Positions 1,484 through 58,841 of a stretch of 64,000 nucleotides of DNA are shown here, one piece after another. The stretch's first letter is position 1. Every line of letters starts with the position of its first letter. The DNA comes from Candidatus Pacearchaeota archaeon (GTDB lineage: Archaea > Nanobdellota > Nanobdellia > Pacearchaeales > GW2011-AR1): NCBI GenBank assembly GCA_041656875.1, contig JBBACR010000001.1:325386-389385 (forward strand), given 5' to 3'. Under the pieces are notes generated by a model. It made no database searches. It saw only the letters and a list, made by a program, of their open reading frames with translations, and was not told the origin of the DNA. The position numbers and the translations under genes were made by a program.

Positions 1484-1510
1484 AAAATTTATTTATATAT
1501 TATATACAAG
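1484..1510 (-). promoter_or_regulatory. class B AT-rich start-proximal motif
   Basis: gene-sense TTGTATATAATATATAAATAAATTT, 20 nt before ATG. Confidence 0.4.
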
Positions 1511-1561
1511 AAAAGCAAATAGTTTCCTACTTGCTTATCAGTTATTTGAATTTATATTTCG

Positions 1562-2575
1562 TTATTCCTTGTGAAACATGTAGTTTTCGCTTTTCGGCGT
1601 TGTGTCATTAAAATATCCAGTGTATTCTTTACCGCCGTACGTAAATGAATAATTCTTTCCAGTTTTTATTGATAAACTACGTGCAATGGATTTATCTAAA
1701 AGAAACGTATTATATTTTGACCATGGAAATACATATTTCGATAATTCAGATTCAGGACCATAATTTTCAGAAACAAACTCATCCCAAGTTGGTATTAGAT
1801 TTTTCTTAATTGGATTTGCTGATTCTTCTTTTGCAAATGGCTCTTTAAAATCAATTACACCTTTTTCTAAATCATCTATTGCACCCGGTGCTTTTGCAGG
1901 CTGTGGCATATAAACTCTGTCAGGTGCATCTTTAATTGGTTGATTTGATTTTCTCAACAATAAAACATTATTCCACATGTAATCTGCAAGTTCATCTTTA
2001 CTTTTTGTGTATGCATCCAAAACAGTTTCCGTTACGTTTTTCTTTACGTATGATTTAAACGCTTCTTCAGACATGTCATAAAGATTTGTTCCTTCAGGTG
2101 ACGACGTTGGTATTTTATTTGAATTTGCAGCAATTGCGAGTTGAATAATTTTTAATGCTTCAATAGGTTCAACATTTATTTTCATATCGTTAACAATAAC
2201 TCTAGTATTAGGATTAACAATATATGCTTCAACCCATCGGTGATGGCCATCAATAATGTACTTACCGTTTAATGTAACAACTGGTGAATTATTAATTGCA
2301 GCCGCACGGCCTTTAAGCATATCATGTAAACTATCTAAAGATTTACCTGCTAATGAATGCTTAATTGACGATTCAAGTAAAAGTTGTTTTTGACAAGGTA
2401 TTAAATTTCTTGCAACAACTTCGCCTGTTGTAAATTTTATCTTTTCGTCATCTGGAAAACCATCTTCACGTCCCGATTTGATTAAAGATTTAACTTTATC
2501 CTTTGCAGCGTCATCCATTAATTGTTTGACAAATCGAGTATATCCTAATTTTACGATATTAGATAAGTATGACAT
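1562..2575 (-). CDS. ParB/Srx-like nuclease domain protein
   Basis: YIIDGHHRWVEAY contains the DGHHR ParB N-terminal (ParBc) signature; 337 aa. Confidence 0.5.
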   Translation of the reverse strand: MSYLSNIVKLGYTRFVKQLMDDAAKDKVKSLIKSGREDGFPDDEKIKFTTGEVVARNLIPCQKQLLLESSIKHSLAGKSLDSLHDMLKGRAAAINNSPVVTLNGKYIIDGHHRWVEAYIVNPNTRVIVNDMKINVEPIEALKIIQLAIAANSNKIPTSSPEGTNLYDMSEEAFKSYVKKNVTETVLDAYTKSKDELADYMWNNVLLLRKSNQPIKDAPDRVYMPQPAKAPGAIDDLEKGVIDFKEPFAKEESANPIKKNLIPTWDEFVSENYGPESELSKYVFPWSKYNTFLLDKSIARSLSIKTGKNYSFTYGGKEYTGYFNDTTPKSENYMFHKE

Positions 2576-2587
2576 TAATTTTATTTT

Positions 2588-2869
2588 TTAAGCTTTTTCA
2601 AATCTCGATGAATTTAAAGAACGAATATCTTTTGAACTATCTTCAATTGCGTATACTCGTAAGTTACTTCCATCATATCCATCTGCAATAAAAATCTGTC
2701 CAATTGGGTATTTCTTAAATCCTGCAATTGCGGAACCTAACATTGTATGCTCACTTTTTTGGACTTCATTATATGCAGCATCTGTTAATTTTACTTTATC
2801 ACCTCTTTTAAAATTAGATGAATTTGATTCATTGATGAATTCTTCGATTGTAGGTATTCTTCTTTTCAT
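2588..2869 (-). CDS. RIPT-leader family protein (93 aa), start revised to internal Met
   Basis: ORF track 2588..2914; upstream gene stop at 2871; true start MKRRIPTIEEFINE matches the conserved leader. Confidence 0.55.
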   Translation of the reverse strand: MKRRIPTIEEFINESNSSNFKRGDKVKLTDAAYNEVQKSEHTMLGSAIAGFKKYPIGQIFIADGYDGSNLRVYAIEDSSKDIRSLNSSRFEKA

Positions 2870-2870
2870 A

Positions 2871-3152
2871 TTATTCGCCTGTAACGTCTGACCACGTGTA
2901 TATGTTATTTGCATTTTTCGTTATTGATAAAATGACAGTCTCATCTTTTTCAAGTTTTCTTTCAAGCCATTCGATAATTCCTTTGCCATTTGTTATGCTT
3001 GTAATTGTCGATTCTTCAACTTTTGGCGCAGGTGCTGTTTCAGCTTCCTCATCTGTTGTTATGAATGCATCAAACGTTTTGAATTTTTCTTCTTGATTTT
3101 CTTGTTCGTTTGGAACTTCTGAATTGATTAATTCTTTAAAATCTTTTATCAT
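2871..3152 (-). CDS. hypothetical acidic protein
   Basis: ORF track 93 aa, tightly packed co-directional array. Confidence 0.4.
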   Translation of the reverse strand: MIKDFKELINSEVPNEQENQEEKFKTFDAFITTDEEAETAPAPKVEESTITSITNGKGIIEWLERKLEKDETVILSITKNANNIYTWSDVTGE

Positions 3153-3159
3153 GATTACT

Positions 3160-3840
3160 TTATTTTGTTAAGCTTGCGTATAATGCAGCATAGTGTTCTG
3201 CTTTTTGTTTTATTTCAGCAATACGAGTTTTCATTCTGGCTTGGTCAATTTCTTGTACGCCATTGCTAATCCAATCTGTTGTTTTTGCCTTTGTTTTTGC
3301 AATTTCTTCTGTTGGCGCTTGCACAAATTCAACAGTTCCGCCATAACCCCAACCTTTATATGGGTCAGTGTATATAAATACTTCAAACCATTTATCTTTG
3401 AATGCTTCTGGCATTTTTTCATACATATAAGATTCGATATCATTCCATCCTATCCATTTGCCATTATCATATTCCAAATCAACACTTGTTCCTGCAATTC
3501 TATCAGTTGTAATAACTTTTATATCATTATTGCTATCTATATAAAATGTATATTTGCCATTAAATGAAGAAGGACCCCATTGTCTGTCTAGTGCTTTCGT
3601 GTAACTTTTCGATTGCAAAATTTCTGAAAACCATCCATGGCCTTTTGCTTCATTTGATACAAATTTTTTAATGATATCATATGTATCAGGACCAAATTTT
3701 ATAGGACTTAATCCTTTTAAAATTTTACTTAGATACTTTATAAGTGCATTATCGACATCGGTATTTCTTGCTTCATTTAATACATTAATTTTTTGATTTT
3801 CATTAATGTATTCTTCAATCGTTGGTATTCTTCTATTCAT
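3160..3840 (-). CDS. RIPT-leader family protein (226 aa)
   Basis: MNRRIPTIEEYINE leader; class B motif 8 nt upstream of ATG. Confidence 0.6.
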   Translation of the reverse strand: MNRRIPTIEEYINENQKINVLNEARNTDVDNALIKYLSKILKGLSPIKFGPDTYDIIKKFVSNEAKGHGWFSEILQSKSYTKALDRQWGPSSFNGKYTFYIDSNNDIKVITTDRIAGTSVDLEYDNGKWIGWNDIESYMYEKMPEAFKDKWFEVFIYTDPYKGWGYGGTVEFVQAPTEEIAKTKAKTTDWISNGVQEIDQARMKTRIAEIKQKAEHYAALYASLTK

Positions 3841-3847
3841 ATAAAAC

Positions 3848-3870
3848 TTATTTTATTATATATTCACAAA
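3848..3870 (-). promoter_or_regulatory. class B motif
   Basis: gene-sense TTTGTGAATATATAATAAAATAAG. Confidence 0.45.
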
Positions 3871-3876
3871 TAAAAC

Positions 3877-4611
3877 TTAAAATAATCCTTTTGCGCCTTT
3901 ATGATCTTTTTGAAAATAACAAAAAAGACATTTGTGTGCACATTGCGCTCTACTATTCAACAATTCAAATTTATTATCTAAACAATGACAAGTAGTTCGT
4001 TGGTATCCTGCTGGTTTTCCAGGTTCAACTCCAAGAATTTGACAATCCAATTCTGATATACAAGGTGTTGACGGTAATCCTTCTTCTGCACATAATGCTG
4101 GCATTTCAAATTCTCGCCATATTCTTTTTCTTATATCTAAAGGTAAATTGAAAGATGTGTATTTTAATTGAAAACCTTTTTCTTCAATTCTTTTTTGCGT
4201 ATGTGGATAGTTATCGTAAAACGATATTCTTACTCTACACATGTTTTCTTTAAGATTTGCTTTTGCCTCTTTCCACACATTTATCGAATTATACATATAA
4301 TTGGATATTGGCATTATCGGGTCAATTCTTAAAACAACACGTTGCGGACCTAATAATTCAACAAATTTATAAAGGTATTCTAAACTTTCTTTTGCGGATG
4401 GTGCATTAGGTTCTAAAGCAGTTCCACCATTTCCTGTTATTGTACAATGCACAATAATATTATAAGGTACATTAAGTTCGCTTATAATTTCATATATTTT
4501 TTTAGGGTTTTTAGATATAATGATTGCGGGATTCTTTTCAGATACCCATTTAATCCAACGATGGTCAAATGCAGCATCCCCATGTTCCGTAATTCCTATT
4601 TTTCTCGACAT
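3877..4611 (-). CDS. Cys-rich protein with C-terminal CX3CX2C (radical-SAM-like 4Fe-4S motif), DUF1848-like
   Basis: C-terminus ...AQCAHKCLFCYFQ = C-x3-C-x-F-C; additional Cys pairs CHC, CISELDC; class B-like motif upstream. Confidence 0.4.
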   Translation of the reverse strand: MSRKIGITEHGDAAFDHRWIKWVSEKNPAIIISKNPKKIYEIISELNVPYNIIVHCTITGNGGTALEPNAPSAKESLEYLYKFVELLGPQRVVLRIDPIMPISNYMYNSINVWKEAKANLKENMCRVRISFYDNYPHTQKRIEEKGFQLKYTSFNLPLDIRKRIWREFEMPALCAEEGLPSTPCISELDCQILGVEPGKPAGYQRTTCHCLDNKFELLNSRAQCAHKCLFCYFQKDHKGAKGLF

Positions 4612-4621
4612 CTATAATTTT

Positions 4622-4645
4622 TGTTTTTTGTTATATATTCATATT
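4622..4645 (-). promoter_or_regulatory. class B-like motif
   Basis: gene-sense ATATGAATATATAACAAAAAAC. Confidence 0.35.
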
Positions 4646-4654
4646 TTTAAACTG

Positions 4655-4702
4655 AAAAACCTTGACTAATATCACTAAAAGCAATCGTAGTCAAGGTTTT
4701 TG
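4655..4702. terminator. bidirectional rho-independent terminator hairpin after thyX
   Basis: aaaaa-CCTTGACTA-(19 nt loop)-TAGTCAAGG-ttttt. Confidence 0.6.
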
Positions 4703-4733
4703 ATTATTTTAGAATCGCGATATCACGTATTCT

Positions 4734-5462
4734 TTAGAATGTGATATCATCAAAAATAATTGGAATTTGTTTTTTGAAATCCTCAAGTAACGGAATTGTC
4801 AATTCACGCATTTGTGGATGTGCTGCGGTAGAACAACGAAGTTTGAAAAAATGTCTCCATTCACGAAGATTGCATGCCATATTGATTTCTGTTTTTAATG
4901 AATTTGGCAATACCGCTCTTGCTTCTTGAGGTTTCCAACCACGTTTTAATAAAGATTGATATGAAATTTCAGCAGTTGCCATTGCATTTAAAAATACAAG
5001 TTCATTGTAATCTTTATCTGTAAATTCTTGTTCTTCGGGTATTTCTGCAAATTGTTTTGCAATAAGTTTACTGTCATGAATTCCTAATTGAATTTCATCA
5101 ACCCATGGCGGTAGTATAAATTGAATATCAGCACCATTTTTTTGTTCGTCAGAGTAATCAACATATCGTGTTGATTCTTGAGCAAAACTTGCAATACGAT
5201 GTCTTACTAGTTCGTGTGAAACACCACGATCACAAGTGAACTTAACAGATATCATTCCACCAAATTCAAGCATTGCTTCATGACCTTTTGAAAGCAGAAC
5301 ACCTTTGATTAATTTTCTAGCAGAAATAGCTTCACCATTTTCTCCATGTTCAATTCGACCTTCGGATTTATAACATGTGCGAGCAGCAACTTCAATTTGT
5401 TTTAGAATTTGTTCTCCATCTATTGGAGTAGTAATTGTGTAAGAAGGTTTTATTAATTTCAT
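4734..5462 (-). CDS. thyX: FAD-dependent thymidylate synthase ThyX
   Basis: VRHRIASFAQESTRY = ThyX RHRx7-8S motif; 242 aa typical length; hairpin terminator immediately downstream. Confidence 0.85.
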   Translation of the reverse strand: MKLIKPSYTITTPIDGEQILKQIEVAARTCYKSEGRIEHGENGEAISARKLIKGVLLSKGHEAMLEFGGMISVKFTCDRGVSHELVRHRIASFAQESTRYVDYSDEQKNGADIQFILPPWVDEIQLGIHDSKLIAKQFAEIPEEQEFTDKDYNELVFLNAMATAEISYQSLLKRGWKPQEARAVLPNSLKTEINMACNLREWRHFFKLRCSTAAHPQMRELTIPLLEDFKKQIPIIFDDITF

Positions 5463-5498
5463 AAAAATAAAAGGATTAATGTATAATATTTGTATACA

Positions 5499-5735
5499 TT
5501 AATCCTTAATAGTTTTAGGTAATTTTAATGAGTAATACGGATTATACTGATATGCAATTAACGGATATGCTAATTCGATATTTGCATATTTTGTAATGAT
5601 TCCTCTGTTTTTATTATATCTTTCAATCGTTAAATAGCCATTCATTATACCTTGGTATGTTCCACGACCAAGACATTTAATGTACTTCTTTTTTAATTTT
5701 CTAGGCAGTTTCATTTTCGATTGAAATAGGAACAA
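5499..5735 (-). CDS. hypothetical small protein
   Basis: ORF track 78 aa; overlaps next ORF by 35 nt. Confidence 0.3.
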   Translation of the reverse strand: MFLFQSKMKLPRKLKKKYIKCLGRGTYQGIMNGYLTIERYNKNRGIITKYANIELAYPLIAYQYNPYYSLKLPKTIKD

Positions 5736-5928
5736 CTTCGATAAACTCAGGTGCCATATAAAGATGCATTAAAGTTCCGCATTCTCGCGAATCTAAACTG
5801 CAATATTTGTACTTCTTTTTGCCGTACCACGTACGATAAGGTATTTCAACCATAAAATCATGTACGTATTCAGATTGTCGAAGTATTTCTTCTTTTTCTG
5901 CTTCAGTACTTACCGTAATTTTTAACAT
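5701..5928 (-). CDS. hypothetical small protein
   Basis: ORF track 75 aa. Confidence 0.35.
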   Translation of the reverse strand: MLKITVSTEAEKEEILRQSEYVHDFMVEIPYRTWYGKKKYKYCSLDSRECGTLMHLYMAPEFIEVVPISIENETA

Positions 5929-6137
5929 GATATTCCTGTTGGCTTGTGAATTACTTTTATTGCTGTTACTTCGTACCGAGGATTTCTTTCGAAACGATCA
6001 TTTGATACATCACATTGAACAAACTCAATTGTTATTTCATTTACCGGTACTTTAAGATCTGCAGCAATTAATTCAGCTAATTGCTTCTTCTTAATTTCAT
6101 ACGTTTTTGTAACGTTTTCACCATTTATGATTCCCAT
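5922..6137 (-). CDS. hypothetical small protein
   Basis: ORF track 71 aa. Confidence 0.35.
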   Translation of the reverse strand: MGIINGENVTKTYEIKKKQLAELIAADLKVPVNEITIEFVQCDVSNDRFERNPRYEVTAIKVIHKPTGISC

Positions 6138-6138
6138 A

Positions 6139-6807
6139 TTACTTTGTATTATTTATATGAATGTCAACTACTTTTCTTTTAAATTGTCCAAGATTATATT
6201 TATCTTTATTGCCGGTGTATCCGCCATGTTTAAAACCTTTTTCTGTCCATATGAAAAAATCAGCAGGACCTTTTAAGCCTTTTTGAAAAATAACAACGTC
6301 ATTTTTAGTTGAACCTTGAGAAACAAATTTAATCGTGCAATTTTCTCCACCCCATGAAACTGTGTTAGGACATGCGTGTATAAGATTTTCAATTGAATGC
6401 TTAATATCAATTGGCAATTGCGTTATTTCGATATCTTGGTCGTATACGTTAATGTTATTTTGATATTCTTTTATTTTTGCTTCCCATTTTTTGTTTTTAT
6501 GCAAAATTTCTGGCAAGATATCATTTACAATATCAATTCCGGTTTTTTCACCAAGTTCGATATAAATACTTAATAAACATTGTAAAGCATCGGCCAATTC
6601 TTCCTTTAAGTGTTCTTTATCGTATGGCTTATAAGTATGTCCTAAGTACTTCAATGCTTCAGCTGTCATTTCACCAAATTCTTCATCGAACTTCATGAAC
6701 TTTGCTTCAATCGGTTTTGTTTCAAGTTTATTCAATCTTTCGATGTCATCAAGGATTACATGCAATTGCAATCCTAGTATTGTGTTTCTGTCGAGATTAT
6801 GATTCAT
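6139..6807 (-). CDS. MazG-like NTP pyrophosphohydrolase fused to a ~75-aa C-terminal domain shared with the next gene
   Basis: EEFGEMTAEALKY ... EELADALQCLLSIYIELG MazG EExxE/EELxD motifs; C-term WGGENCTIKFVS...GPADFF...HGGYTGNK paralogous to 6797..7339. Confidence 0.6.
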   Translation of the reverse strand: MNHNLDRNTILGLQLHVILDDIERLNKLETKPIEAKFMKFDEEFGEMTAEALKYLGHTYKPYDKEHLKEELADALQCLLSIYIELGEKTGIDIVNDILPEILHKNKKWEAKIKEYQNNINVYDQDIEITQLPIDIKHSIENLIHACPNTVSWGGENCTIKFVSQGSTKNDVVIFQKGLKGPADFFIWTEKGFKHGGYTGNKDKYNLGQFKRKVVDIHINNTK

Positions 6808-7340: not shown

Positions 7341-9539
7341 TTATTTTTTTATAAATGATAATGTATTTCCGTTAACTATTGCAATATAATATCCAGCAGA
7401 TAAATTTTCAACATTAATTGATTCTTCATCTGTAATTTCTTTTTCTATTACAGAAACACCATTTGCACCTATAATTTTTACTTTAGATGTTCCTATATTT
7501 TTAATTTTAATATAATCAGTTGTAGGATTTGGATATATTGAAATTTCATTTGTAATAATACCAACGGCCGTAGTATCTCCAACCGATGTAGTATCTTCAA
7601 TTCCTGCTTGAATAATTATGATTGTTTTTGATACGTTGCCTACAGGTTTTACCTCATCTGCCGCATATACTGTGATTTTAGCAGTTCTCTTTGTTTTTGT
7701 CGTATTTGCGCTTGCGGTAAATGATATTGAGTTTTGATTGCCAACAGTAGTTACAGTTAACCATGTTTGGTCAGAATTTACTTGTATGTAACCTGCATTT
7801 GATATTGCATACAGATTTTTAAAATTCGATGAACTTGATAAGACAATTGTTGCTGTATCAATTGTTATAATAACATCAGCAGGTTCTTGGGTAACAATTA
7901 TTGAATCTTTTACATTTCCTGCCCAAACAGTAACCTTTGCATGTCGGGGTATTGACATTGGATTTGCTTGTGCAGTAAATGTAATTACAGAATTTGTGAT
8001 TGCTGCAGTTAACCATGGTTCTGATGAAATTGGATAAAGCGAAGTATTTGAAGTAACTGTTACTGTTGCAATACTGTTAGTATCTTTACCAATACTTATA
8101 GAATCTTTCAAAATTGTTATTGTGCCATTGCCTGGTTTTTGTATAATCGTTAATGTTTTAGATGCGGGAACTCCTTTAATTGAATAAAGAATATGTGCTG
8201 TAGCAGTTCGAGTGGTTACATTTGGGTTTTCTTCAATTGCTTTAAATTCAATTGTTCCATTTCCATTTGTTTGCAAATTACTTGTGGTTAACCAAGAATC
8301 ATTTGATTCAACAGTCCATGTTGCATTTGATGATACATTGAAAGATACCGTACTGTTTTTTGTGTAATCAATTGTTGCAGTCGTTGAAACAAGGTCAATA
8401 TATTCGATACCTGCAGGTTGTGTAATTGTTATGATTTGGTCAGCAATGCCGTTTCCTTTAATTGTAACTGTTGCAGTTCTGTCAATAAGTGTTGGATTTA
8501 CAGATGCAATCAAGTTAATAGTTGTTCCATTTGTTGTTAAACTTAACCATGTTTGGTCAGATGTAGCAGTCCATTGTACATTTGCATCAATTGTAACATT
8601 TGCTGTATTTACAATATTAATAGTATTTGATGTAACGGATATGTATGGACTTTCGCCTTCTTGCACAATTGTCAAAGTATCTGCTATTGTATCCGCATAA
8701 CTAGTTGAATTGGTAGTTAATTGTGTTGTTGCTATTACAATTTTTGCAGTTCTTTTTGATGTAGTATGATTTGCTGATAACGTATATGAAACTGTACCGC
8801 CATCCAATCCAGTTGAATTATTAATAGTTATCCATGGCGAATCTGATGTTGCTGTCCAATCGCCTTGTCCTGTAAATGTGTTATCATATGATGCAGAAGT
8901 ACTTGGCACTGTATCAACCGTTTTTGTCAATAATACGCCATTCATTTCAAATATGTACGTAGATGCGGGGATAGTTACCAAGTTTTTATACAATTGCAAT
9001 GAACCGAACGGAACATAATAACTGACAGTATATGTACTATACGTTAAATTTGTAGGAGGGACTTTCGAGAAAAGATAAATGAAACTCCTATTTGCTTTTG
9101 TTCCACACAACGTGAACATTGCATATGAACCGATTGACGTTACATTTTTTGGTATAGCTAACCATCTAAGCGATGTGCATTGATAAAATGCGTATTTTCC
9201 GATTGCTGTCAATGATTGCGGTAATTTAATCCAAGTAATGACAAACCGATAAAACGCACTGTCGGGGAGTGCATTATTTGCATAAATTTTAGTTCCACTG
9301 TTATATTCAACAATGTTAGCATTTGATAAATCAACTGTCTTTAATTGATTTTTCATTGTTGTCATGAACACAAAATCACGGTAATCAATAGGACCAGTTA
9401 CGATTAAATCGGTAACTGTTGTAGTAGTAAATTTCACTGACATTTCGCCAGCGGCAGTAGAGTTGTACGTTGAGTACACTTGGGCGTTTACTGCGATTGC
9501 AATAAAAAATCCCGTCAATAAAAGGAATAGTTTTTTCAT
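7341..9539 (-). CDS. secreted BspA-type leucine-rich-repeat / multi-BACON protein with T9SS C-terminal sorting domain
   Basis: Signal peptide MKKLFLLLTGFFIAIAVNAQ; LRR_5-like AIGKYAFYQCTSL..IPKNVTSIGSYAMF; five W....WL BACON-like modules; C-term IYPNPTTDYIKIK...LSAGYYIAIVNGNTLSFIKK = T9SS CTD; degenerate class A promoter upstream. Confidence 0.7.
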   Translation of the reverse strand: MKKLFLLLTGFFIAIAVNAQVYSTYNSTAAGEMSVKFTTTTVTDLIVTGPIDYRDFVFMTTMKNQLKTVDLSNANIVEYNSGTKIYANNALPDSAFYRFVITWIKLPQSLTAIGKYAFYQCTSLRWLAIPKNVTSIGSYAMFTLCGTKANRSFIYLFSKVPPTNLTYSTYTVSYYVPFGSLQLYKNLVTIPASTYIFEMNGVLLTKTVDTVPSTSASYDNTFTGQGDWTATSDSPWITINNSTGLDGGTVSYTLSANHTTSKRTAKIVIATTQLTTNSTSYADTIADTLTIVQEGESPYISVTSNTINIVNTANVTIDANVQWTATSDQTWLSLTTNGTTINLIASVNPTLIDRTATVTIKGNGIADQIITITQPAGIEYIDLVSTTATIDYTKNSTVSFNVSSNATWTVESNDSWLTTSNLQTNGNGTIEFKAIEENPNVTTRTATAHILYSIKGVPASKTLTIIQKPGNGTITILKDSISIGKDTNSIATVTVTSNTSLYPISSEPWLTAAITNSVITFTAQANPMSIPRHAKVTVWAGNVKDSIIVTQEPADVIITIDTATIVLSSSSNFKNLYAISNAGYIQVNSDQTWLTVTTVGNQNSISFTASANTTKTKRTAKITVYAADEVKPVGNVSKTIIIIQAGIEDTTSVGDTTAVGIITNEISIYPNPTTDYIKIKNIGTSKVKIIGANGVSVIEKEITDEESINVENLSAGYYIAIVNGNTLSFIKK

Positions 9540-9632: not shown

Positions 9633-10445
9633 TTAAAATAATGTTACAGATTTTTCAACAAGTTTTTTTCCTTCAGTTATTTTTGCAAATTCTTTGATAA
9701 TTTTACGGAATTCTTCTGGAATTATTCGCAAAACGCGTTCTGCTAATTCATTAGGCAATTTTTCATAAAACACATATGCAAGGCCACAAGCAATTGCAGC
9801 CAATGTATCGGTATCTCCACCATGCATAATGCTTTCTCTAAGTACTTCGGTAAAATCATTTCCAGTAAAGAAACAATTGAATGCTTCATGAACACCTGTT
9901 ATCGAATGTAAAGAATTTTTACGTGTATCAACATCACCTGGTTTTTTGTATTCATAACCATATGTTGATTTCAACATTTTGTACAATTCAGATTTATCTT
10001 TGCAAGTTCGCGCCATGAATGTTACATGAGCAAGTTGCATTACAGCGTCAAGCGAATCTGTATGATTATGTGTGCATGATGATTGTTTTACAGCTTGTCT
10101 TAAAACTGTTGGCAAATCGTTGTAAAATAACGGAATTGATAACCCACGCATTGCTGAACCATTTCCATAGCTGTTGTACGCAGCTCTATCACCGGCAGTA
10201 TTTGCCCATTTTGTAAACATTCCGCCGTATCCCATTCTTGGGTATTTTCTAGCATATTTTTGAATCATCATATCAAATGGACGGTTTTTCAATAAAGCTT
10301 CAGAAACAGCCAATGTTAAAATTGTATCATCTGTAAAACGATTTGCCTTTGTTATAAATTTGAACTCTGGGCTGATATCAGTTTTCCATTCCTTTGTTGA
10401 CCCAACAACATCGCCGATTACAGCGCCAAGTAAAAAGTATTTCAT
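9633..10445 (-). CDS. ADP-ribosylglycohydrolase (ARH family)
   Basis: N-term LLGAVIGDVVGSTKEW and C-term GGDTDTLAAIACGLA match ARH metal-binding motifs. Confidence 0.7.
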   Translation of the reverse strand: MKYFLLGAVIGDVVGSTKEWKTDISPEFKFITKANRFTDDTILTLAVSEALLKNRPFDMMIQKYARKYPRMGYGGMFTKWANTAGDRAAYNSYGNGSAMRGLSIPLFYNDLPTVLRQAVKQSSCTHNHTDSLDAVMQLAHVTFMARTCKDKSELYKMLKSTYGYEYKKPGDVDTRKNSLHSITGVHEAFNCFFTGNDFTEVLRESIMHGGDTDTLAAIACGLAYVFYEKLPNELAERVLRIIPEEFRKIIKEFAKITEGKKLVEKSVTLF

Positions 10446-12550: not shown

Positions 12551-13087
12551 CTAACGTTTTTTAGGGTTCATTACATTGTCTAATGATAAATTGGCAGATT
12601 CCTTTGTTTTAAAGAAATTGTTTGTTCTTTTACGATACGTTGTTTTATAATCGTCAGAAACGTAAGTATCTTGACAAACTTTACCACTAGAATTGATAAA
12701 CCAATAAAAAGTTGGTATATGAATATTATCTTCGATAACAGTGCATATTACCTTAGTTCCATTTTTAAGTGAATACTTATGAGGAACACCAGGCGTTGTT
12801 GATTGCAATACTTCTTGAACAATAAGTGCTGTTTTTTCACCTATTCCATTACCTATTACTTTAACCTTGTCAGGTCTTAAGTAAACAGAATCGCCTTTTT
12901 TATATTTTGGCATTGCAAATTCAACAAAGAAATGTGGTTCTTTTGTTGGGTCAAACATGCATGGTGCTGATGTTGTGTTCCAGTACCATACGCCTACACC
13001 TCTATCTGATACCATGTCTCCTACGTTATATCCGCCAGGAAATTTTGATTTTAAAATAAATGTTCTTACTTGTGGCATATCTTTCAA
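12551..13087 (-). CDS. hypothetical protein
   Basis: ORF track 178 aa; class B motif upstream. Confidence 0.45.
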   Translation of the reverse strand: MKDMPQVRTFILKSKFPGGYNVGDMVSDRGVGVWYWNTTSAPCMFDPTKEPHFFVEFAMPKYKKGDSVYLRPDKVKVIGNGIGEKTALIVQEVLQSTTPGVPHKYSLKNGTKVICTVIEDNIHIPTFYWFINSSGKVCQDTYVSDDYKTTYRKRTNNFFKTKESANLSLDNVMNPKKR

Positions 13088-13092: not shown

Positions 13093-13114
13093 AATTTTAT
13101 TTTATATACAGAAA
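13093..13114 (-). promoter_or_regulatory. class B motif
   Basis: gene-sense TTCTGTATATAAAATAAAATTT. Confidence 0.45.
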
Positions 13115-13116
13115 TT

Positions 13117-13368
13117 TCAATTAGTTTTACTTAATATTTCAAAATTATATGCATGACCTGTTTGTGAGACAACAAATTTAACTTTCATGCCAATATACGG
13201 TTTTATTGATTGCCGTTGCATATATCCTCGGCCGCCTACGTTTTTTGCATCTATTAATACTTGCGGATAACCTTCGCCATCAATTCCTCTTACACTATCA
13301 ATAAAATATGTTACCCCATCATCACCTAATACTGCAGCACTGTAACTGTCTTTTATTATTCCTTCCAT
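13117..13368 (-). CDS. hypothetical protein
   Basis: ORF track 83 aa. Confidence 0.35.
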   Translation of the reverse strand: MEGIIKDSYSAAVLGDDGVTYFIDSVRGIDGEGYPQVLIDAKNVGGRGYMQRQSIKPYIGMKVKFVVSQTGHAYNFEILSKTN

Positions 13369-15483: not shown

Positions 15484-15494
15484 GTTTTATTTTT

Positions 15495-15543: not shown

Positions 15544-15556
15544 TTTTACGATACTT

Positions 15557-15589
15557 TTTTATGAATATATAAAATAAATTATTAATATT
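15557..15589 (+). promoter_or_regulatory. class B motif heading the plus-strand RIPT-leader gene array
   Basis: TTTTATGAATATATAAAATAAATTATTAATATT then ATG. Confidence 0.45.
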
Positions 15590-19625: not shown

Positions 19626-19673
19626 GATTTTTATTTATATATTAAAAGATACGCATTGTTATTTTGAAGTTAT

Positions 19674-21410: not shown

Positions 21411-21426
21411 TATTTATCTAATCTTT

Positions 21427-21455
21427 TTATGTAATATATAATTATATACATAAAG
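21427..21455. promoter_or_regulatory. near-palindromic class B element in divergent region (helicase <- -> 21471)
   Basis: tatgtaatatataattatatacataaag reads as class B motif on both strands. Confidence 0.4.
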
Positions 21456-35418: not shown

Positions 35419-35445
35419 ATTATTATTTTATTTTATATACACAAG
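35419..35445 (-). promoter_or_regulatory. class B motif
   Basis: gene-sense CTTGTGTATATAAAATAAAATAATAA-ATG. Confidence 0.45.
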
Positions 35446-35456
35446 CAATTAAAAGT

Positions 35457-36302
35457 TTACTTTTTCAGTTTATTCTCCAGCATCGGTATAATTACCAATT
35501 CAAATGTTTCCTTTTCTGTTATGTAGTTATCTTTGTTTACCTGACCAATGCTTCTACTTGAAATAGAGCATGTTGATTGTTTGAATACTGATTCAAGAAA
35601 CTTTGGATCGTCAAATTTGATTTCATTATTCTGATTTGCATAACCAACAATTTCATCTTTATATTTTACAGGAATTGTGTATAACTTCATTTTTGTAAGT
35701 CGTTCTTCACGTCTTAATAACGTGTCAGCCCATTTTACACTTGCATTAAAAGTATCAGAATCGTTTTCAGTATTTATCATGCACATTGCTGCTTTTCGAT
35801 ACTCATCATATGTTGATTGTTTTTCATTGATTTTTGCAAACTCGTCCTTTGTTTTCCCATCACGCAATTTGACGCGTTTTAATCTGGCTTTGAAATCATC
35901 GGTTGCATTTGTTCCCGCAACAACCGCAATTACTTTATCGTATTTTGATGAATTGCCCAAAGACAATGCTTGTGCACATTCAACTAATACGTAATCTGCA
36001 TGCTGATTATCGCACCACATATCAAATAATGTATTGATATATGGAATCATAAAATCTTCGATTATTTTTTTCTTTTCATGATTTTCATAGAATTCTGTTA
36101 CGAATTCTCGTTTCAATCGAAATTCTTCTGTGAAGCAATCCTCACCAAATACTTTTTTATACACTTCTTGCACTACAGGATTCTTTAATGCAATTCTGTT
36201 TTCATTATCAACAAAAAATACAGGAACGCCAAGTTCTTGGAATTTTTTAGCAACAGTAGTTTTACCTGCTCCAATATTTCCAGTAAGTAATACTTTTAAC
36301 AT
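35457..36302 (-). CDS. dephospho-CoA kinase (CoaE)-family P-loop kinase with ~80-aa C-terminal extension
   Basis: LLTGNIGAGKTTVAKKFQELGVPVFFVDNE; ADYVLVECAQAL; VIAVVAGTNATDDFKARLKRVKLRDGKTKDEF align with CoaE GLTGGIGSGKST / DADxIA / DRVLVV..RLxxRDG blocks. Confidence 0.55.
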   Translation of the reverse strand: MLKVLLTGNIGAGKTTVAKKFQELGVPVFFVDNENRIALKNPVVQEVYKKVFGEDCFTEEFRLKREFVTEFYENHEKKKIIEDFMIPYINTLFDMWCDNQHADYVLVECAQALSLGNSSKYDKVIAVVAGTNATDDFKARLKRVKLRDGKTKDEFAKINEKQSTYDEYRKAAMCMINTENDSDTFNASVKWADTLLRREERLTKMKLYTIPVKYKDEIVGYANQNNEIKFDDPKFLESVFKQSTCSISSRSIGQVNKDNYITEKETFELVIIPMLENKLKK

Positions 36303-37040: not shown

Positions 37041-37072
37041 ATGAATATATAAATAAATTAATACTTATAAAC
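37036..37072 (+). promoter_or_regulatory. class B motif upstream of MerR-family gene
   Basis: CTTTAATGAATATATAAATAAATTAATACTTATAAAC-ATG. Confidence 0.45.
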
Positions 37073-41623: not shown

Positions 41624-41684
41624 TTCTTGTTTATTTTATATATAAAGAATATGAAATGCAAATTATACAAGAATTGGAGTTGGG

Positions 41685-43691: not shown

Positions 43692-43715
43692 TAATTTTTA
43701 TTTATATATTAAAGT
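43692..43715 (-). promoter_or_regulatory. class B motif
   Basis: gene-sense CTTTAATATATAAATAAAAATTAAAG. Confidence 0.4.
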
Positions 43716-45929: not shown

Positions 45930-45950
45930 TTTGATTTATATATACATAAC
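45930..45950 (-). promoter_or_regulatory. class B motif (longer spacer)
   Basis: gene-sense TTATGTATATATAAATCAAACAAATAAAAAGCA-ATG. Confidence 0.4.
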
Positions 45951-45956
45951 TATCCG

Positions 45957-47105
45957 TTAGTTTTCTACTATATGCAGTTCATGCGCTTCAATATTCAACG
46001 GCACTTCTAATTTTTTGCGCATTTTATCCATCACGCATAACGGAACTTGTTCTTTTTCTGTTCTGCTTAAATTTTGTTTTACACAATCAGCATAAGGTGT
46101 TGCAATAAAAATTATTTTTACATACGCCTTATACGAAGTGAACAATGAAATAAGTCCTTCTCTCATTTGTCTTGTTATGTTAGTTGCATTCCAAACAAAA
46201 TCAATTCCTTTTGCCATATATTCTTTGGCAGTTTTCTTTGCTTCTTGAATAACACGACCTTGTTCATCAGTCGGCTTTATTTTTAATCTTCTTCGTATTT
46301 CGTCTAAAGATATCACAGGTATTCCTGACATATGTTTCGATATGTAATAATCTTTACCCGAACCAGGCAAACCTACCATCATGCATACGGTTGATTTTGT
46401 ATCATCAAACGGACAATCTGAATGATGATGTGTTCTTTCAACAAGATACTTATATTTTGCAATTCCTGTTCCGAATTCGTATGCACCGTCAATAAGATCC
46501 AAATCAAAAGCTAATAATAAAAAGTAATCAATTGCTTCAAGTCTTTTATCAATGTCTGATGCAATTCTTCCTTTAAAATCACTTTTTGTCATGTAATAAA
46601 GATTGTCCATTCTGCAATCTTGTGACATTTTAATAATTGAACGTTCTTGTTCTTCTCTTGTTTTATCAATAAGCCATGTAGGTTTTCCATGATATAGAAT
46701 AAGATTGCAAATTTCGATACGATCCAAAATAGGCATCTTATCACCATTAATTATTGATACTTTAAGGTTCTCTAATAATTCCCATGCAATTTTTGCGCCT
46801 GTTGCTTCGTGTCCATGTGCTCTAATTTTGCCATCCTCTAATTTTGAGACTATCGGTTTTGCAATATCATGAAGTAACAATGCATAATTTATAATTGTTA
46901 TGTCATGCGCGCATAACGATAATTCTTCATCAATTCCGTCAAGTTCATTACAAATTTTTTCAAATTCGTCAAGAACCATTTTTGTATGTGTTAGCACATC
47001 GCCTTCACCGTGCCAGTCTGGATTTTGTTCGCATAATGACATTGCATTTAAGTATGGATGCAATTCTTTCCATTGCGGAACAACATAATCATAAAATTTA
47101 CTCAT
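45957..47105 (-). CDS. HD-Pnk: N-terminal HD phosphoesterase plus C-terminal P-loop 5'-OH polynucleotide kinase (end-healing enzyme)
   Basis: NPDWHGEGDVLTHT, LLLHDIAKP, HGHE (HD motifs); CMMVGLPGSGKDYY Walker A; architecture as described for Runella HD-Pnk. Confidence 0.65.
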   Translation of the reverse strand: MSKFYDYVVPQWKELHPYLNAMSLCEQNPDWHGEGDVLTHTKMVLDEFEKICNELDGIDEELSLCAHDITIINYALLLHDIAKPIVSKLEDGKIRAHGHEATGAKIAWELLENLKVSIINGDKMPILDRIEICNLILYHGKPTWLIDKTREEQERSIIKMSQDCRMDNLYYMTKSDFKGRIASDIDKRLEAIDYFLLLAFDLDLIDGAYEFGTGIAKYKYLVERTHHHSDCPFDDTKSTVCMMVGLPGSGKDYYISKHMSGIPVISLDEIRRRLKIKPTDEQGRVIQEAKKTAKEYMAKGIDFVWNATNITRQMREGLISLFTSYKAYVKIIFIATPYADCVKQNLSRTEKEQVPLCVMDKMRKKLEVPLNIEAHELHIVEN

Positions 47106-48302: not shown

Positions 48303-48332
48303 ATATAATTTATTTTATATTATATACACAAA
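48303..48332 (-). promoter_or_regulatory. class B motif upstream of HNH-RNA ligase
   Basis: gene-sense TTTGTGTATATAATATAAAATAAATTATAT-ATG. Confidence 0.45.
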
Positions 48333-48351
48333 GTGTTCAAAGTTTATAAAT

Positions 48352-52366: not shown

Positions 52367-52939
52367 TTACTTTTTCTTTTTATTGCATTCGTATAAATTT
52401 GATGTAATTTGTGGTGGCAATTGCTCAAATTTCATATCAGCATATTTTTCACAATCATCAGGATCTTCGCACGCGCCAGATACTGCTTCACATCTATCAT
52501 CAAAACTCATTTTATCCCATGTTTGTTTTGTAATAAGAACTTGTTTGCCTTCATTTGTTTTGATTTCATCATACAGTTCTTTCAACTTCTTACCGCCAAA
52601 TTTGCTTATAAGATTTTTAAATTCGTCTTTGAATCTTTTTTCAAATTCCGCAAAAGTATCGCATTCATCAGCTAATGCATAAACGTCAGAAAGATCTGAT
52701 TCGTTTACAAAACTTTCATTTGTTTCGCTTTGAACTCTGTTATACAACTCGTGCAATTTCACACCTTTAAAATTACGAACAAATTGTTTAAAATCTACGT
52801 TAAATCTTTTGTCGAATTCTTCAAATGTATCACATTCTTTTGCTAACGATTCTATATCAGATAGTATGTCAGATATTTCTTTTTCATTAACTTTTGATTC
52901 GTTGATGTATTCATCGAGTGTAGGTATTCTTCTTTCCAT
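52367..52939 (-). CDS. RIPT-leader family protein with internal duplicated ~45-aa module
   Basis: MERRIPTLDEYINE leader; ECDTFEEFDKRF... repeated as ECDTFAEFEKRF...; class B motif upstream. Confidence 0.55.
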   Translation of the reverse strand: MERRIPTLDEYINESKVNEKEISDILSDIESLAKECDTFEEFDKRFNVDFKQFVRNFKGVKLHELYNRVQSETNESFVNESDLSDVYALADECDTFAEFEKRFKDEFKNLISKFGGKKLKELYDEIKTNEGKQVLITKQTWDKMSFDDRCEAVSGACEDPDDCEKYADMKFEQLPPQITSNLYECNKKKK

Positions 52940-52948
52940 TATATGTAC

Positions 52949-52969
52949 TTTATTTTATATATTCCAATT
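52949..52969 (-). promoter_or_regulatory. class B motif
   Basis: gene-sense TTGGAATATATAAAATAAAGTAC. Confidence 0.4.
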
Positions 52970-56669: not shown

Positions 56670-57057
56670 TTATTAAGTTATTTTTTAAATTATCTATCAT
56701 GTATCGACGCCATAATCTGCTAACAGGATGTGGCAATTTTTTATGTTCAACTTTTAAATCGTCAAGTGCTTTACCAGCAGTTTTACCACATGCAATTATT
56801 GCAAACCAAGAATCTCTATCAATTGCTGATTTAACCCATTTTAAATCAACAGGAAACTTTGTATCTTTGTTATCTGCAATTTCTGGAGTTGTTTCAGTAA
56901 ACCAAAGTTCAAAGTGTTCTTCAAGAGAAAGCAGTCTTGAATATGTTGCGTTTTTTCGATTGATGATTCTTGTATCATATACAGGAATCTTGAACTTGTT
57001 TTTACGATATCCGTAAAAATTTTCAAGTACAATAAGTATTTTTGGTTTTTCTTCCAT
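56650..57057 (-). CDS. hypothetical protein
   Basis: ORF track 135 aa. Confidence 0.4.
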   Translation of the reverse strand: MEEKPKILIVLENFYGYRKNKFKIPVYDTRIINRKNATYSRLLSLEEHFELWFTETTPEIADNKDTKFPVDLKWVKSAIDRDSWFAIIACGKTAGKALDDLKVEHKKLPHPVSRLWRRYMIDNLKNNLIIEKDAI

Positions 57058-57275
57058 TACGCAATAAGTAATACTTTTGATGCAATTCTTTCAACATTTT
57101 CAATATTTGTTTCTTTTGCAGTTTTTAATGCTGCAAGATAACCGTCAATGTATCCTTCTTTGGCAGCACCAAATTTATCTTCGGAAATTCTACCGACAGC
57201 ATGCAATCCGTTATATGTATGAAATTTATCTTCAGCGTATTGCCATGCAACAAATTCTAGTTCATCATTCTCCAT
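57057..57275 (-). CDS. hypothetical small protein, start revised to MENDELEF
   Basis: class B motif cattgtgtatataaaataaaattgatacc lies immediately 5' of this ATG; table's longer N-terminus would overlap the motif and the GATase 3' end. Confidence 0.4.
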   Translation of the reverse strand: MENDELEFVAWQYAEDKFHTYNGLHAVGRISEDKFGAAKEGYIDGYLAALKTAKETNIENVERIASKVLLIA

Positions 57276-57283
57276 TGGTATCA

Positions 57284-57305
57284 ATTTTATTTTATATACA
57301 CAATG
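57284..57305 (-). promoter_or_regulatory. class B motif (inside 3' end of GATase gene)
   Basis: gene-sense CATTGTGTATATAAAATAAAATTGATACC-ATG. Confidence 0.4.
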
Positions 57306-57912
57306 AAGGAAAAGTTTTACTATACAGCCATTCAGAAACAATTCTTTCGCAAAAAGTACCTCTTACTTCTTCACGTTCAGGATGCCATTGAACAAGCATA
57401 CAATTATCGCCTGCCCACGCCATTTCTATAATGCCATCATCTGATTTTGCAACAGGATGGATATCTTGTCCCAATGTTTTTATTGCTTGATGATGTCTTG
57501 AATTAACTTCAGCTTGCATTCCATTGATTGCAATAAAATGCCAACTTGATTCTAAAGATGGCAGTGGCTCATTTGCAATTGCAACTGCATTTGCCGAATG
57601 ATTTATTTTTGTTTGCGTTTCATTTAAAATGTCACCGTATAAAGTGCCGCCTAATGCAACATTTACTAATTGTAAACCACGGCAGATACCAAGAACTGGG
57701 ATATTTCCGTATGCTGAACCAAACCATTTTGTTTCTCTTAAATCTCGTTCAAAATTTTTACCAATATCAGCTCCACCACAAAGTAATAACATGCTAAATT
57801 TATCGGTTATGAGTTCATCTTCGTTAAGTACATGGTATTTCAATTGACGGTATTCAAGCCATTCTAAATAATTATTTAGTTGATTCTTATGTGGCGGTGC
57901 AACTGCTATCAT
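57292..57912 (-). CDS. class I glutamine amidotransferase (PuuD / peptidase C26-like)
   Basis: LGICRGLQL (Cys nucleophile), NSRHHQAI, VQWHPE (His-Glu). Confidence 0.7.
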   Translation of the reverse strand: MIAVAPPHKNQLNNYLEWLEYRQLKYHVLNEDELITDKFSMLLLCGGADIGKNFERDLRETKWFGSAYGNIPVLGICRGLQLVNVALGGTLYGDILNETQTKINHSANAVAIANEPLPSLESSWHFIAINGMQAEVNSRHHQAIKTLGQDIHPVAKSDDGIIEMAWAGDNCMLVQWHPEREEVRGTFCERIVSEWLYSKTFPSLCI

Positions 57913-57928
57913 TTTGCTTTCATTTAAA

Positions 57929-58801
57929 TTAATTACGTTTTCTTTTTTTTGCTGATTCGCGCATTTTTTGTTTCGTTTCGTCTGTTCGTTTTTGACCTCT
58001 CCTAGATTCTGCTGCTTTGTCTATAGATTCTTGCTTTTGTCTTACACCTCTTGTTATACCTACCAATTCACCTGATAAATATCTGGGGTCATCTCGTAAA
58101 ACTTTGTATGTTTTACCTGATGCGTCTTTAACCATTACCATTCCCTTTGATATGTTTACCAATTCCCCCGATAAATATCTAGGATCGTTTTTATCAACTT
58201 GTAATGTACAGCCATTGGCATCTTTAACAGTTACTCTTCCTTTAGCAATACCCACCAATTCGCCAGATAAATATCTTACGTCGTCAGGTAATACAGAAAA
58301 ATAATTGCCATTTGCATCTTTAACACTTATACGTCCTTTAAACATGTGAATTAATTCACCAGATACATATCTTGGATCATTTTTATCAACCATATGATAA
58401 TTATTATCTGAATCTAATGTTGGCACAATGCCTTTTGTTACGCCAACAAAATTCCCAGATAAATACAGTTCGCTGTCTTTACGTAATAACTTCACATTTC
58501 CGTTAGCATCCTTTAGTGATGCTGCACCTGTTGTGTGAAAGCCAACAGATGGAATATGATAGTTTTCATTTAAAGGATCTTCAATCCATTTTGAAATTTC
58601 TTCAGTTTCAAACTTAATAGCATCTTCTCTACAAATAAAGTCATCTTTAATAATTTCCTTTTTTAGTTTTGTTTTGTTAGGTTTCCAAGTTTTCATTGAA
58701 CCTAAATAAGAATCTAGAGTAGGATGAACTTCTGAACTTCTGGAACCTATATAGAATTGTTTAGTTTCTATATGTTCAATTCGATATACATAATGATACA
58801 T
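57929..58801 (-). CDS. GIY-YIG homing endonuclease with tandem 29-aa repeats, paralog of 37266..38444
   Basis: MYHYVYRIEHIETKQFYIGS; repeats VKDANGNxxxVxxDDxRYLSGELVGIxKG x5-6. Confidence 0.6.
   Translation of the reverse strand: MYHYVYRIEHIETKQFYIGSRSSEVHPTLDSYLGSMKTWKPNKTKLKKEIIKDDFICREDAIKFETEEISKWIEDPLNENYHIPSVGFHTTGAASLKDANGNVKLLRKDSELYLSGNFVGVTKGIVPTLDSDNNYHMVDKNDPRYVSGELIHMFKGRISVKDANGNYFSVLPDDVRYLSGELVGIAKGRVTVKDANGCTLQVDKNDPRYLSGELVNISKGMVMVKDASGKTYKVLRDDPRYLSGELVGITRGVRQKQESIDKAAESRRGQKRTDETKQKMRESAKKRKRN
58036..58516 (-). repeat. five to six tandem ~87-bp coding repeats in paralogous GIY-YIG gene
   Basis: VKDANGNYFSVLPDDVRYLSGELVGIAKG-type units. Confidence 0.55.
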
Positions 58802-58818
58802 ACATTTAAATATTTTTA

Positions 58819-58841
58819 ATTATTTATATTATATATCAAAA
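58819..58841 (-). promoter_or_regulatory. class B motif upstream of GIY-YIG HEG
   Basis: gene-sense TTTTGATATATAATATAAATAATTAAAAA. Confidence 0.4.

Follow-up and report, generated by a model that had tools for sequence, protein, structure and literature searches.

In Bacillus phage SPO1, transcription runs through a cascade in which host sigmaA serves early, gp28 middle and gp33/34 late promoters. In phage T4, gp55 reads the late promoters together with gp33 and the sliding clamp gp45 and needs no element other than TATAAATA, which spans -13 to -6; position -13 is weakly conserved in the late promoters of T4-like phages (PMC1524935). Group 2 jumbo phages, including phages of Bacteroidetes, have no RNA polymerase (RNAP), but do have a minimal sigma factor, a fuller one and gp33 (PMC7824862). 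Promoters of extracytoplasmic function (ECF) sigma factors typically have an AAC -35 motif, which in B. subtilis takes the form tGAAACnTTTt (PMC5758882). Late motifs resembling TATAAATA are also known from many jumbo phages and distant relatives of T4. To our knowledge, promoter-level regulation is undescribed for the huge T4-related phages of Bacteroidota (Lak, PTm1 and the relatives of LR756500), which are known almost only from metagenomes. Here, we analyzed a 64,000-nucleotide stretch of contig JBBACR010000001.1 (hereafter the window), in which an earlier note, made from the sequence alone, had proposed that an AT-rich motif just upstream of many start codons represents a distinct, phage-specific promoter class.

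This motif is two distinct motifs that share the core TATATAA, a two-box form (class 2a) and a one-box form (class 2b), and both are most likely DNA-level promoter signals for phage-directed transcription. The proposal of a distinct class therefore stands for its phage-specific character and falls for its singularity.

Two AT-rich motifs with a shared core

When 150 unique TATATAA sites were aligned on the core, they split into 33 class 2a sites, 42 class 2b sites near starts, and 74 other copies that are mostly intragenic and have flanks that are not conserved. Class 2a has the form tGAAACTATT-N-cTG-TATATAAT, with about 10 nt between tGAAACTATT and the cTG that precedes TATATAAT. Across its 33 sites a conserved GAAACTATT box lies 19 nt upstream of TATATAA. 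The conserved positions are AAACTATT (-19 to -12), T (-5/-4) and TG (-2/-1), and TATATAAT usually comes next (consensus t.AAACTATTt.aaa.Tt.TG-TATATAAt-AtaaAAtt). Read as a promoter, it would have a -35 box GAAACT, a 16-nt spacer and a -10 box TATAAT. Class 2b, (t)GAATATATAAA(A)TAAAA, is without a -35 element: its 42 sites have no AAACT box, their conservation is limited to gaA-TATATAAA..AAaa with no information upstream of -5 (logo gaATATATAAA..AAaa), and many contain the exact TATAAATA.

A third motif, class 1 (ATTGCTATTGC-N-TGTTGTATATTTGATTTTA), occurs in 12 copies in the window, all on the minus strand; its full form, A-ATTGCTATTGC-N9-TGTTGTATATTTGATTTTAAttAATT, spans about 45 nt and is almost invariant. 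By its sequence, class 1 fits the -33/-7 type of promoter read by the sigmaA of Bacteroidota (TTTG/TAnnTTTG), and its conservation is far beyond the needs of sigmaA recognition. The AT-rich motif is distinct from this TAnnTTTG class, as had been claimed, since class 2 has TATATAAA/T at the position of the -7 box and either a different -35 box or none.

All 14 sites listed in the earlier note were present with the quoted sequence. The class 2a members lie upstream of the minus-strand starts at 48302, 36964, 35415, 57275, 13087, 45914 and 1471, and the class 2b members upstream of those at 3840, 52939, 43686 and 58801 and of the plus-strand starts at 15590 and 37073. The near-palindromic copy at 21427-21455, said to serve both directions, indeed consists of TATATAA followed directly by TTATATA (21435-21448), with oriented cores for the genes on both sides; its helicase side is class 2a and its plus side class 2b. 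The claim that at least 15 start codons carry the motif is borne out for the shared core with its A-rich tail, but not for the strict 18-nt consensus TGTATATAAnATAAAATA, which has 6 sites at no more than 2 mismatches (0.32 expected from shuffles). The commonest intergenic 8-mer is ATATATAA: intergenic DNA makes up 6.8% of the window and holds 15 of its 21 copies. Counting both strands, 23 of the 42 copies of TATATAA are followed after 10-40 nt, on the same strand, by an ATG that opens an open reading frame (ORF) of 45 codons or more, against 11.9% for random positions (binomial P=2.5e-11), and among the 128 A/T-only 7-mers ATATATA ranks first and TATATAA second for start proximity (median 16%). 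These data confirm that the start-associated TATATAA motif is not an artefact of AT-richness.

The 21-mer core of class 1, lineage-specific in IMG/VR, is specific enough to retrieve this phage lineage from that database, and yielded 22 loci outside the window (176 kb, partly redundant); a further 20.6-kb locus of the same phage (L145) was obtained by exact-protein look-up. Position weight matrices (PWMs) trained solely on non-window loci of the same genome found 10 sites of class 2a and 12 of class 2b in the window, where 0.5 would be expected for each, nearly all of them just upstream of a start and in gene sense. In the non-window loci, TATATAA lies 7-45 nt upstream of 39 starts. A scan for sigma70-type TTGACA/TATAAT promoters was uninformative, with fewer matches than in shuffles, and a scan of IMG/VR with the class 2 17-mer returned mostly unrelated AT-rich contigs, among which the class 2a regular expression was rare.

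Evidence for DNA-level promoter signals

The earlier note had also offered the motif as a translation-initiation enhancer, acting in the mRNA upstream of the AUG in an initiation without Shine-Dalgarno (SD) sequences. Such an element would suit the closeness of the motif to the ATG (mode about 22 nt in class 2b) and its A-richness, and Bacteroidota, which are without SD sequences, favour A-rich upstream regions including an A at -3 (PMC6847099). We nevertheless regard this explanation as very improbable and favour promoters in the DNA, because the distance from core to ATG varies (7-39 nt in class 2b, 21-49 nt in class 2a); the conserved box of class 2a, which is found about 40-70 nt before the ATG, keeps its register relative to the core but not relative to the ATG; homologous elements of about 110 nt without any ORF come after three of the class 2a copies (L120 2222, L125 1459 and L131 896); many sites come just after terminator-like hairpins (at 1513-1536, upstream of 4637, at L015 7085, at L134 4618, and after the sheath gene) or lie at strand switches in divergent pairs (15484-15589 and 21411-21470); and 236 of the 333 genes examined, including tightly packed operon-internal genes, have no motif of any of the three classes.

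The three ORF-less elements start a few nucleotides after class 2a:

L120 2229-2345 (+): non-coding element after class 2a
L125 1466-1582 (+): non-coding element after class 2a
L131 773-889 (-): non-coding element after class 2a

Blocks such as GGTTTCGGAAAGGGT are common to them, as is a stem that covaries in part, and in L131 the gene that follows the element has a class 2a copy of its own. An Rfam search found tRNAs only and matched these elements to no family; their sequence makes them candidate phage small RNAs. We also considered the tRNA arrays of this genome as evidence for class 2a and dropped them, as they are driven by class 1-like promoters; at L133, for instance, a small ORF and a terminator come first, then a class 1-like promoter and then the array. 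Dense arrays (Gln, Leu, Met, Arg, Lys, Gly) lie at L133 3588-4324 and 6237-6452 and at L021 907-2080.

The signals are kept in relatives, for which we compared L006 and L007 (helicase 64-68% identical) and L146 (tube protein 70% identical); L002 and L003 are 100% identical to the window in the aligned region upstream of the helicase and gave no footprint information. In L006 and L007, the intergenic region between the helicase and RIPT-leader genes keeps both oriented cores and the AAAC-N15 register while its flanks differ, and the orthologue of the divergent pair at 15484-15589 keeps AATGAATATATAAAATAAAAT though the -33 region of class 1 has changed. The more distant L146, which has its own gp55-like gene, carries GGAATAAATAGTA upstream of its sheath gene (twice), its portal gene and a 903-aa gene; these four are among 7 matches at no more than 2 mismatches in that locus, against 1.6 expected. 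This pattern indicates that the retained core of class 2b is (A/T)ATAAATA.

Genes headed by each class

In the window, class 2a heads the genes for a helicase, an RNA ligase with an HD/AAA_33 kinase, PTH2, a SLOG/DprA-like protein and ThyX, and elsewhere those for topoisomerase II (in tandem with class 1), a NUDIX-like protein (again with class 1 and class 2a in tandem upstream) and a guanylate-kinase-like protein. In strain L128, the gp55-like gene is headed by class 2a as well (around 7360(-)), the promoter being embedded in a terminator-like hairpin. Class 2b heads the tail sheath gene and the adjoining 189-aa gene (tube by position), a 664-aa gene whose unit includes the N-terminal piece of terL, a 360-aa ORF inserted in terL, a 327-aa gene, the gene for a gp15-like tail-sheath stabiliser and a 761-aa gene; no unit of this structural block is headed by class 1 or class 2a. 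Site-gene assignments agree with the earlier statement that the motif heads the RIPT-leader array, the homing endonuclease genes (HEGs) and the RNA-repair genes, with one-box sites at the HEGs and RIPT-leader genes and two-box sites at the RNA-repair genes. The sites in the window are as follows, with PWM scores in bits where given:

1492..1526 (-): class 2a (GGAAACTATT..cTTG TATATAAT) with an overlapping TATATAAATAAA; heads the SLOG/DprA-like gene 1064-1471; 34.2 bits; the -35 box sits within the terminator-like hairpin 1513-1536
5482..5516 (-): class 2a variant (AAAACTATT..AATG TATACAA); heads ThyX 4734-5462; 15.8 bits; this site (5496) is missing from the earlier list and overlaps a 15-bp palindromic hairpin
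13094..13128 (-): class 2a; heads the 178-aa ORF 12551-13087; 36.7 bits
21434..21468 (-): class 2a; heads the Rad3/DinG-like helicase 19674-21410; kept in L006 and L007; its core adjoins the plus-strand class 2b core to form the palindrome TATATAATTATATA
35425..35459 (-): class 2a; heads ORF 35053-35415; 25.3 bits
36973..37007 (-): class 2a; heads ORF 36767-36964
45930..45964 (-): class 2a (AAAACTAA..TATG TATATAT); heads PTH2 45504-45914
48312..48346 (-): class 2a; heads RNA ligase 47109-48302 and HD/AAA_33 kinase-phosphatase 45957-47105
57284..57318 (-): class 2a; overlaps the 3' end of the GATase gene 57292-57912; heads the 72-aa ORF 57057-57275
3849..3865 (-): class 2b (GTGAATATATAATAAAATAAG); heads the RIPT-leader gene 3160-3840
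4624..4640 (-): class 2b, after a terminator-like hairpin; heads the DUF1848 gene 3877-4611
15563..15579 (+): class 2b; heads the RIPT-leader genes 15590-15829 and 15829-16137; divergent from the class 1 promoter at 15520, the pair being kept in L006 and L007
17223..17239 (+): class 2b-like; within the end of gene 16146-17255, 22 nt upstream of the RIPT-leader start 17248
19628..19644 (-): class 2b (TTTAATATATAAATAAAAATC-ATG); heads the DUF7487/endonuclease-like gene 18858-19625; predicted leader about 1 nt
21432..21448 (+): class 2b-like half of the bidirectional site; heads the RIPT-leader gene 21471-21911
37043..37059 (+): class 2b; heads the HTH gene 37073-37279 and the HNH homing endonuclease 37266-38444
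41629..41645 (-): class 2b; heads the NUMOD3 homing endonuclease 40511-41623
43695..43711 (-): class 2b; heads the GIY-YIG/NUMOD3 endonuclease 42739-43686
52948..52964 (-): class 2b; heads the RIPT-leader gene 52367-52939
58822..58838 (-): class 2b; heads the MYHYVY... (GIY-YIG-like) gene 57929-58801
9583, 11243, 14522, 15520, 30841, 32512, 49304, 50326, 51618, 61308, 61915 and 63669 (-): class 1 (TAnnTTTG)

The class 2b promoter and the 5' end of the MYHYVY... gene (window 58526-58877) have a second copy at L120 3260-3611 that is 93% identical, with TTAATTTATTCCTATAT direct repeats upstream in the window, and HEGs appear to move together with their own promoter. A look-up of the HEG 40511-41623 matched no record. 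At L145, terL appears to be split into a 164-aa N-terminal piece (3046-3540) and a 624-aa C-terminal piece (4669-6543) by the 360-aa ORF (3603-4685), which is probably an inserted homing-endonuclease-type gene.

The RIPT-leader genes encode a large family of proteins that are otherwise unrelated but have in common the N-terminal sequence M-x-(R/K)-R-I-P-(T/S)-(I/L/F)-(D/E/N)-(E/D)-(Y/F)-(I/L)-N-E, and most of them lie behind class 2b promoters. Their starts are:

Window: 2869(-), 3840(-), 15590(+), 15829(+), 17248(+), 17611(+), 21471(+) and 52939(-)
Other loci: L130 66, 809 and 1253; L133 663, 1134 and 2569; L015 12281 and 12753

Internal proteins of T4 carry the capsid-targeting sequence MKTYQEFIAE. 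The RIPT leaders resemble it in joining a short conserved leader to diverse bodies and in their I-x-E motifs (PMC3012670), and by this analogy the proteins may be packaged, protease-processed ejection or anti-defence proteins.

Phage sigma factors and a proposed cascade

A search for a phage sigma factor elsewhere in the genome, one of the checks proposed in the earlier note, found two sigma-like genes on the 425-kb contig to which the window belongs. One encodes a gp55-like protein of 121 aa that matches the PHROG family phrog_234, 'late sigma transcription factor' (E=2.2e-11), and our own five-sequence gp55 hidden Markov model (E=2e-8). A single-sequence search of PDB gave no match and the family profile was needed, its top match being T4 gp55 (7d7c_F, E=0.0038); a tblastn search of all phages with T4 gp55 gave no Bacteroidota phages among the matches listed. 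The gene is flanked on one side by the 761-aa gene and on the other by genes resembling gp4, gp2 and the portal gene gp20, with gp15- and gp46-like genes in the vicinity, and we hold its assignment, which derives from these similarities, with moderate confidence. The other sigma, of 215 aa, is of ECF type (Sigma70_r2 6e-11, r4_2 1.4e-4; TIGR02937 44.2 bits vs cutoff 42.9), with SigW, sigmaE and AlgU as its best PDB matches, and its gene stands directly behind two class 1 promoters. Counterparts of both sigmas are present in relatives, and LR756500.1 has a homologue of the ECF-type sigma.

We hypothesize, and consider it probable, that this phage runs an early/middle/late cascade in the style of T4, with two phage promoter classes each matched to a phage sigma. 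Early in infection, host sigmaA would read class 1, including the promoters of the ECF-type sigma gene. Host core RNAP carrying this sigma would then read the two-box class 2a, whose middle regulon would comprise replication, nucleotide and RNA-repair genes, the small RNAs and the gp55-like gene, and the gp55-like minimal sigma would finally read class 2b (core TATAAATA) at virion genes, HEGs and genes of RIPT-leader proteins. If the geometry of T4 applies (core at -13 to -6), transcription from class 2b would begin some 15 nt beyond the first T of TATATAA. The predicted leaders would then be short, about 1-10 nt, with about 1 nt for the gene that starts at 19625, about 7 nt where the spacing is modal and a maximum of about 20 nt. 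The 'near-leaderless' mRNAs suggested in the earlier note are thus plausible for late genes, provided that the start position taken from T4 geometry holds, and such short leaders would be acceptable in a Bacteroidota host without SD sequences; the mRNAs of F. psychrophilum are mostly leadered, with an average of 33 nt, 87% above 10 nt and 5.5% leaderless (PMC6847099). More tentatively, and with slightly less than even confidence, we suggest a hybrid cascade in which an ECF-type sigma replaces the MotA/AsiA step of T4 and drives a minimal gp55-like sigma, with leaders of about 0-10 nt on most late, HEG and internal-protein mRNAs.

Several observations weigh against the cascade. The phage is known only from metagenomes, and we infer the pairing of sigmas with promoter classes from architecture and analogy; that class 2a and 2b sites mark transcription starts is likewise deduced from sequence, as are the timing and the lengths of the leaders. 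At 121 aa, against 185 in T4, the gp55-like protein is short; it has no Pfam match, and its sole PDB link is the profile match cited above. Single-sequence phmmer searches with T4 queries, which are insensitive, found no match to gp33, gp45, RpbA, DsbA, gp32 or gp59 in the roughly 40% of the genome that they covered. In the window, class 2b heads only HNH, GIY-YIG, NUMOD3 and DUF7487 endonuclease genes, five RIPT-leader genes and the DUF1848 gene, so that the label 'late' derives from other parts of the genome, where the portal gene is without a clean class 2b site. At L020 6268-6347, 13 nt (TATATAATTTCTA) that include the -10 box of the class 2a site upstream of the gp55-like gene are deleted. 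The -10 box of ECF promoters is usually CGT-like, whereas that of class 2a is TATAAT, and the ECF-type sigma gene carries class 1 and not class 2a promoters, that is, it is not autoregulated. Because the -10 box is TATATAAT and the sigma gene is not autoregulated, we call class 2a ECF-like in its -35 box and assign it to no defined ECF group.

Alternative explanations

Both subclasses might instead belong to one promoter class, in which a single factor, either the gp55-like sigma or a modified host RNAP, reads TATATAA(A)ATAAA and the GAAACTATT box, like a MotA box, is an optional upstream element or activator site that merely adjusts promoter strength or timing. The shared TATATAA and A-rich tail would fit, as would the cross-match of the 2b PWM to three 2a sites and the presence of both forms at 1492-1526, and the box, at about -34 to -26 and 13 nt from TATAAT, has the geometry of the T4 MotA box (N11-13; PMC1524935). 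We consider a single class unlikely, as the two sets head different gene classes and differ around the core (TG at -2/-1 with a preference for TATATAAT in 2a, GAA with a preference for TATATAAA in 2b). Moreover, the position of the gp55-like gene behind class 2a in L128 means that class 2a cannot depend solely on gp55, and the genome has a second sigma, of the ECF type, from a family that recognises AAC -35 boxes. Somewhat less credible still is that class 2 sites are variant promoters of host sigmaA, with a -7 box TAnnTAAT for TAnnTTTG, no phage sigma involved and timing set by other phage factors. TGTATAT does occur at the same place in class 1 and class 2a, and the two classes stand in tandem upstream of the topoisomerase II and NUDIX genes, but T-8, T-7, T-6 and G-5 of the Bacteroidota -7 box are near invariant (PMC6847099) where class 2 is A-rich, the -35 box of class 2 is different or absent, and two phage sigma genes are present and conserved in relatives.

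According to the last alternative, to which we give hardly any weight, the motif has no regulatory role of its own and is either a hot spot of recombination or a repeat that belongs to mobile homing-endonuclease cassettes. In its favour, GIY-YIG, HNH or NUMOD3 genes follow many of the class 2b sites, and one promoter is duplicated together with the 5' end of its HEG, as described above. However, the motif also heads the non-mobile sheath, tube-like, gp15-like, helicase and RNA ligase genes and is kept at orthologous positions in relatives, and a HEG that carries its own promoter is expected under the promoter model too.

Identity of the phage and its host

The window has 31% GC and is about 94% coding under the standard code. 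The contig that carries its Rad3/DinG-like helicase measures 425,361 bp and was deposited as a metagenome-assembled genome (MAG) of a 'Candidatus Pacearchaeota archaeon', and near-identical contigs are deposited under 'Clostridia bacterium'. Its gene content, which includes portal, sheath, terminase and gp2/gp4/gp15/gp46/gp55-like genes (helicase P0001; proteins P0121-P0128), shows this parent contig to be a misbinned huge T4-like phage. The gp55-like protein, the ECF-type sigma, and the portal, gp15-like, topoisomerase II and tail proteins have exact matches on the same 425,361-bp contig that carries the window's helicase and RNA ligase, and the accession numbers of the extra-locus proteins belong to a single MAG series. 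The closest GenBank phage is the uncultured LR756500.1 (462 kb, 43% amino-acid identity), followed by the Bacteroidota jumbo phages Chryseobacterium MA9V-2, Tenacibaculum PTm1 and Lak. A megablast search of GenBank phages with 20 kb gave no match, and the sole relative found in a helicase-based scan of IMG/VR was 26% identical.

The presence of BACON and Por_Secre_tail domains on a 732-aa protein (7341-9539(-)) points to Bacteroidota as the host; this LRR/BACON protein, whose Por_Secre_tail is a C-terminal sorting domain of type IX secretion, is driven by an early promoter. An ADP-ribosylglycohydrolase is encoded at 9633-10445(-), and proteins with a PARP catalytic domain are encoded at L129 5444-6742(-) and L135 89-1168(+). 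Alt and Mod of T4 ADP-ribosylate RNAP, and by analogy the LRR/BACON protein, the ADP-ribosylglycohydrolase and the two PARP proteins have possible host-takeover functions. The genome also has an amber-suppressor tRNA with a CUA anticodon (L015 6970-7043(+), the same as L131 9563-9636(-)), labelled Pyl by ARAGORN. This tRNA suggested general recoding of TAG, which is unsupported, as TAG is the stop codon of about 10% of the called genes, and only two ORFs are candidates for an extension across an in-frame TAG on their upstream side (window 59696-59911 and L129 11947-12096).

Comparison with known systems and implications

The likeness to T4 late promoters that the earlier note had drawn holds for one of the two subclasses. 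Class 2b is a one-box promoter with TATAAATA/TATAAAATA and no -35 element, it heads tail and packaging units, homing endonucleases and putative head-internal proteins, and the genome has a gp55-like sigma gene in a T4-like module (gp46, gp15, gp4, gp2 and gp20). The (A)ATAAATA of the relative, moreover, echoes the weak conservation of -13 in other T4-like phages. Unlike those of T4, class 2b promoters have longer conserved flanks (GAATA upstream and an A-run downstream), and their predicted leaders are far shorter and have no SD sequence; the phage itself differs in its 425-kb genome and its putative Bacteroidota host. Class 2a resembles T4 middle promoters in its TATAAT-like -10 box, in having a non-sigma70 box in place of -35 at about the same distance, in its place ahead of genes for replication, nucleotide metabolism and RNA repair, where an early promoter sometimes stands in tandem with it, and in heading the late-sigma gene in one strain. 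Its box, however, is GAAACTATT and not the TGCTT of the MotA box ((a/t)(a/t)(a/t)TGCTTtA), and its likely reader is a phage ECF-type sigma instead of a host sigma remodelled by MotA/AsiA.

With ECF systems, class 2a shares the AAC within its -35 sequence tGAAACTATTt, which strongly resembles the -35 part of the B. subtilis sigmaW promoter tGAAAC(nTTTt)-N16-CGTA, and the phage sigma passes the cutoff of the sigma70-ECF superfamily and has its best solved relatives among ECF (group 4) sigmas (SigW, sigmaE and AlgU). The differences are a -10 box that is TATAAT-like and not of the CGT type, a sigma gene that stands behind early promoters without autoregulation, and the lack of an identified anti-sigma factor. 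The proposed scheme is similar to that of SPO1 in its successive promoter classes, each with a phage sigma expressed from the preceding class, though the sigma families and promoter sequences are unrelated and the late step here would be T4-like. Class 1 fits the sigmaA promoters of Bacteroidota and shares TGTATAT with class 2a, whereas in class 2 the near-invariant TTTG is missing and the -35 box is either absent or of another sequence.

T4-type late promoters, like phage sigma cascades, are classical, and the advance is incremental; what is new is that such promoters are delineated in a megaphage of Bacteroidota, along with an ECF-like middle class. The signatures of classes 1, 2a and 2b would allow early, middle or late timing to be assigned from sequence to hundreds of unannotated genes of such huge phages, and that of class 2b would flag the RIPT-leader family and many HEGs as late. 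They also give concrete templates, together with two small sigma proteins, for work on the RNA polymerase of Bacteroidota, and the very short leaders predicted for late mRNAs bear on how translation starts without SD sequences in this phylum.

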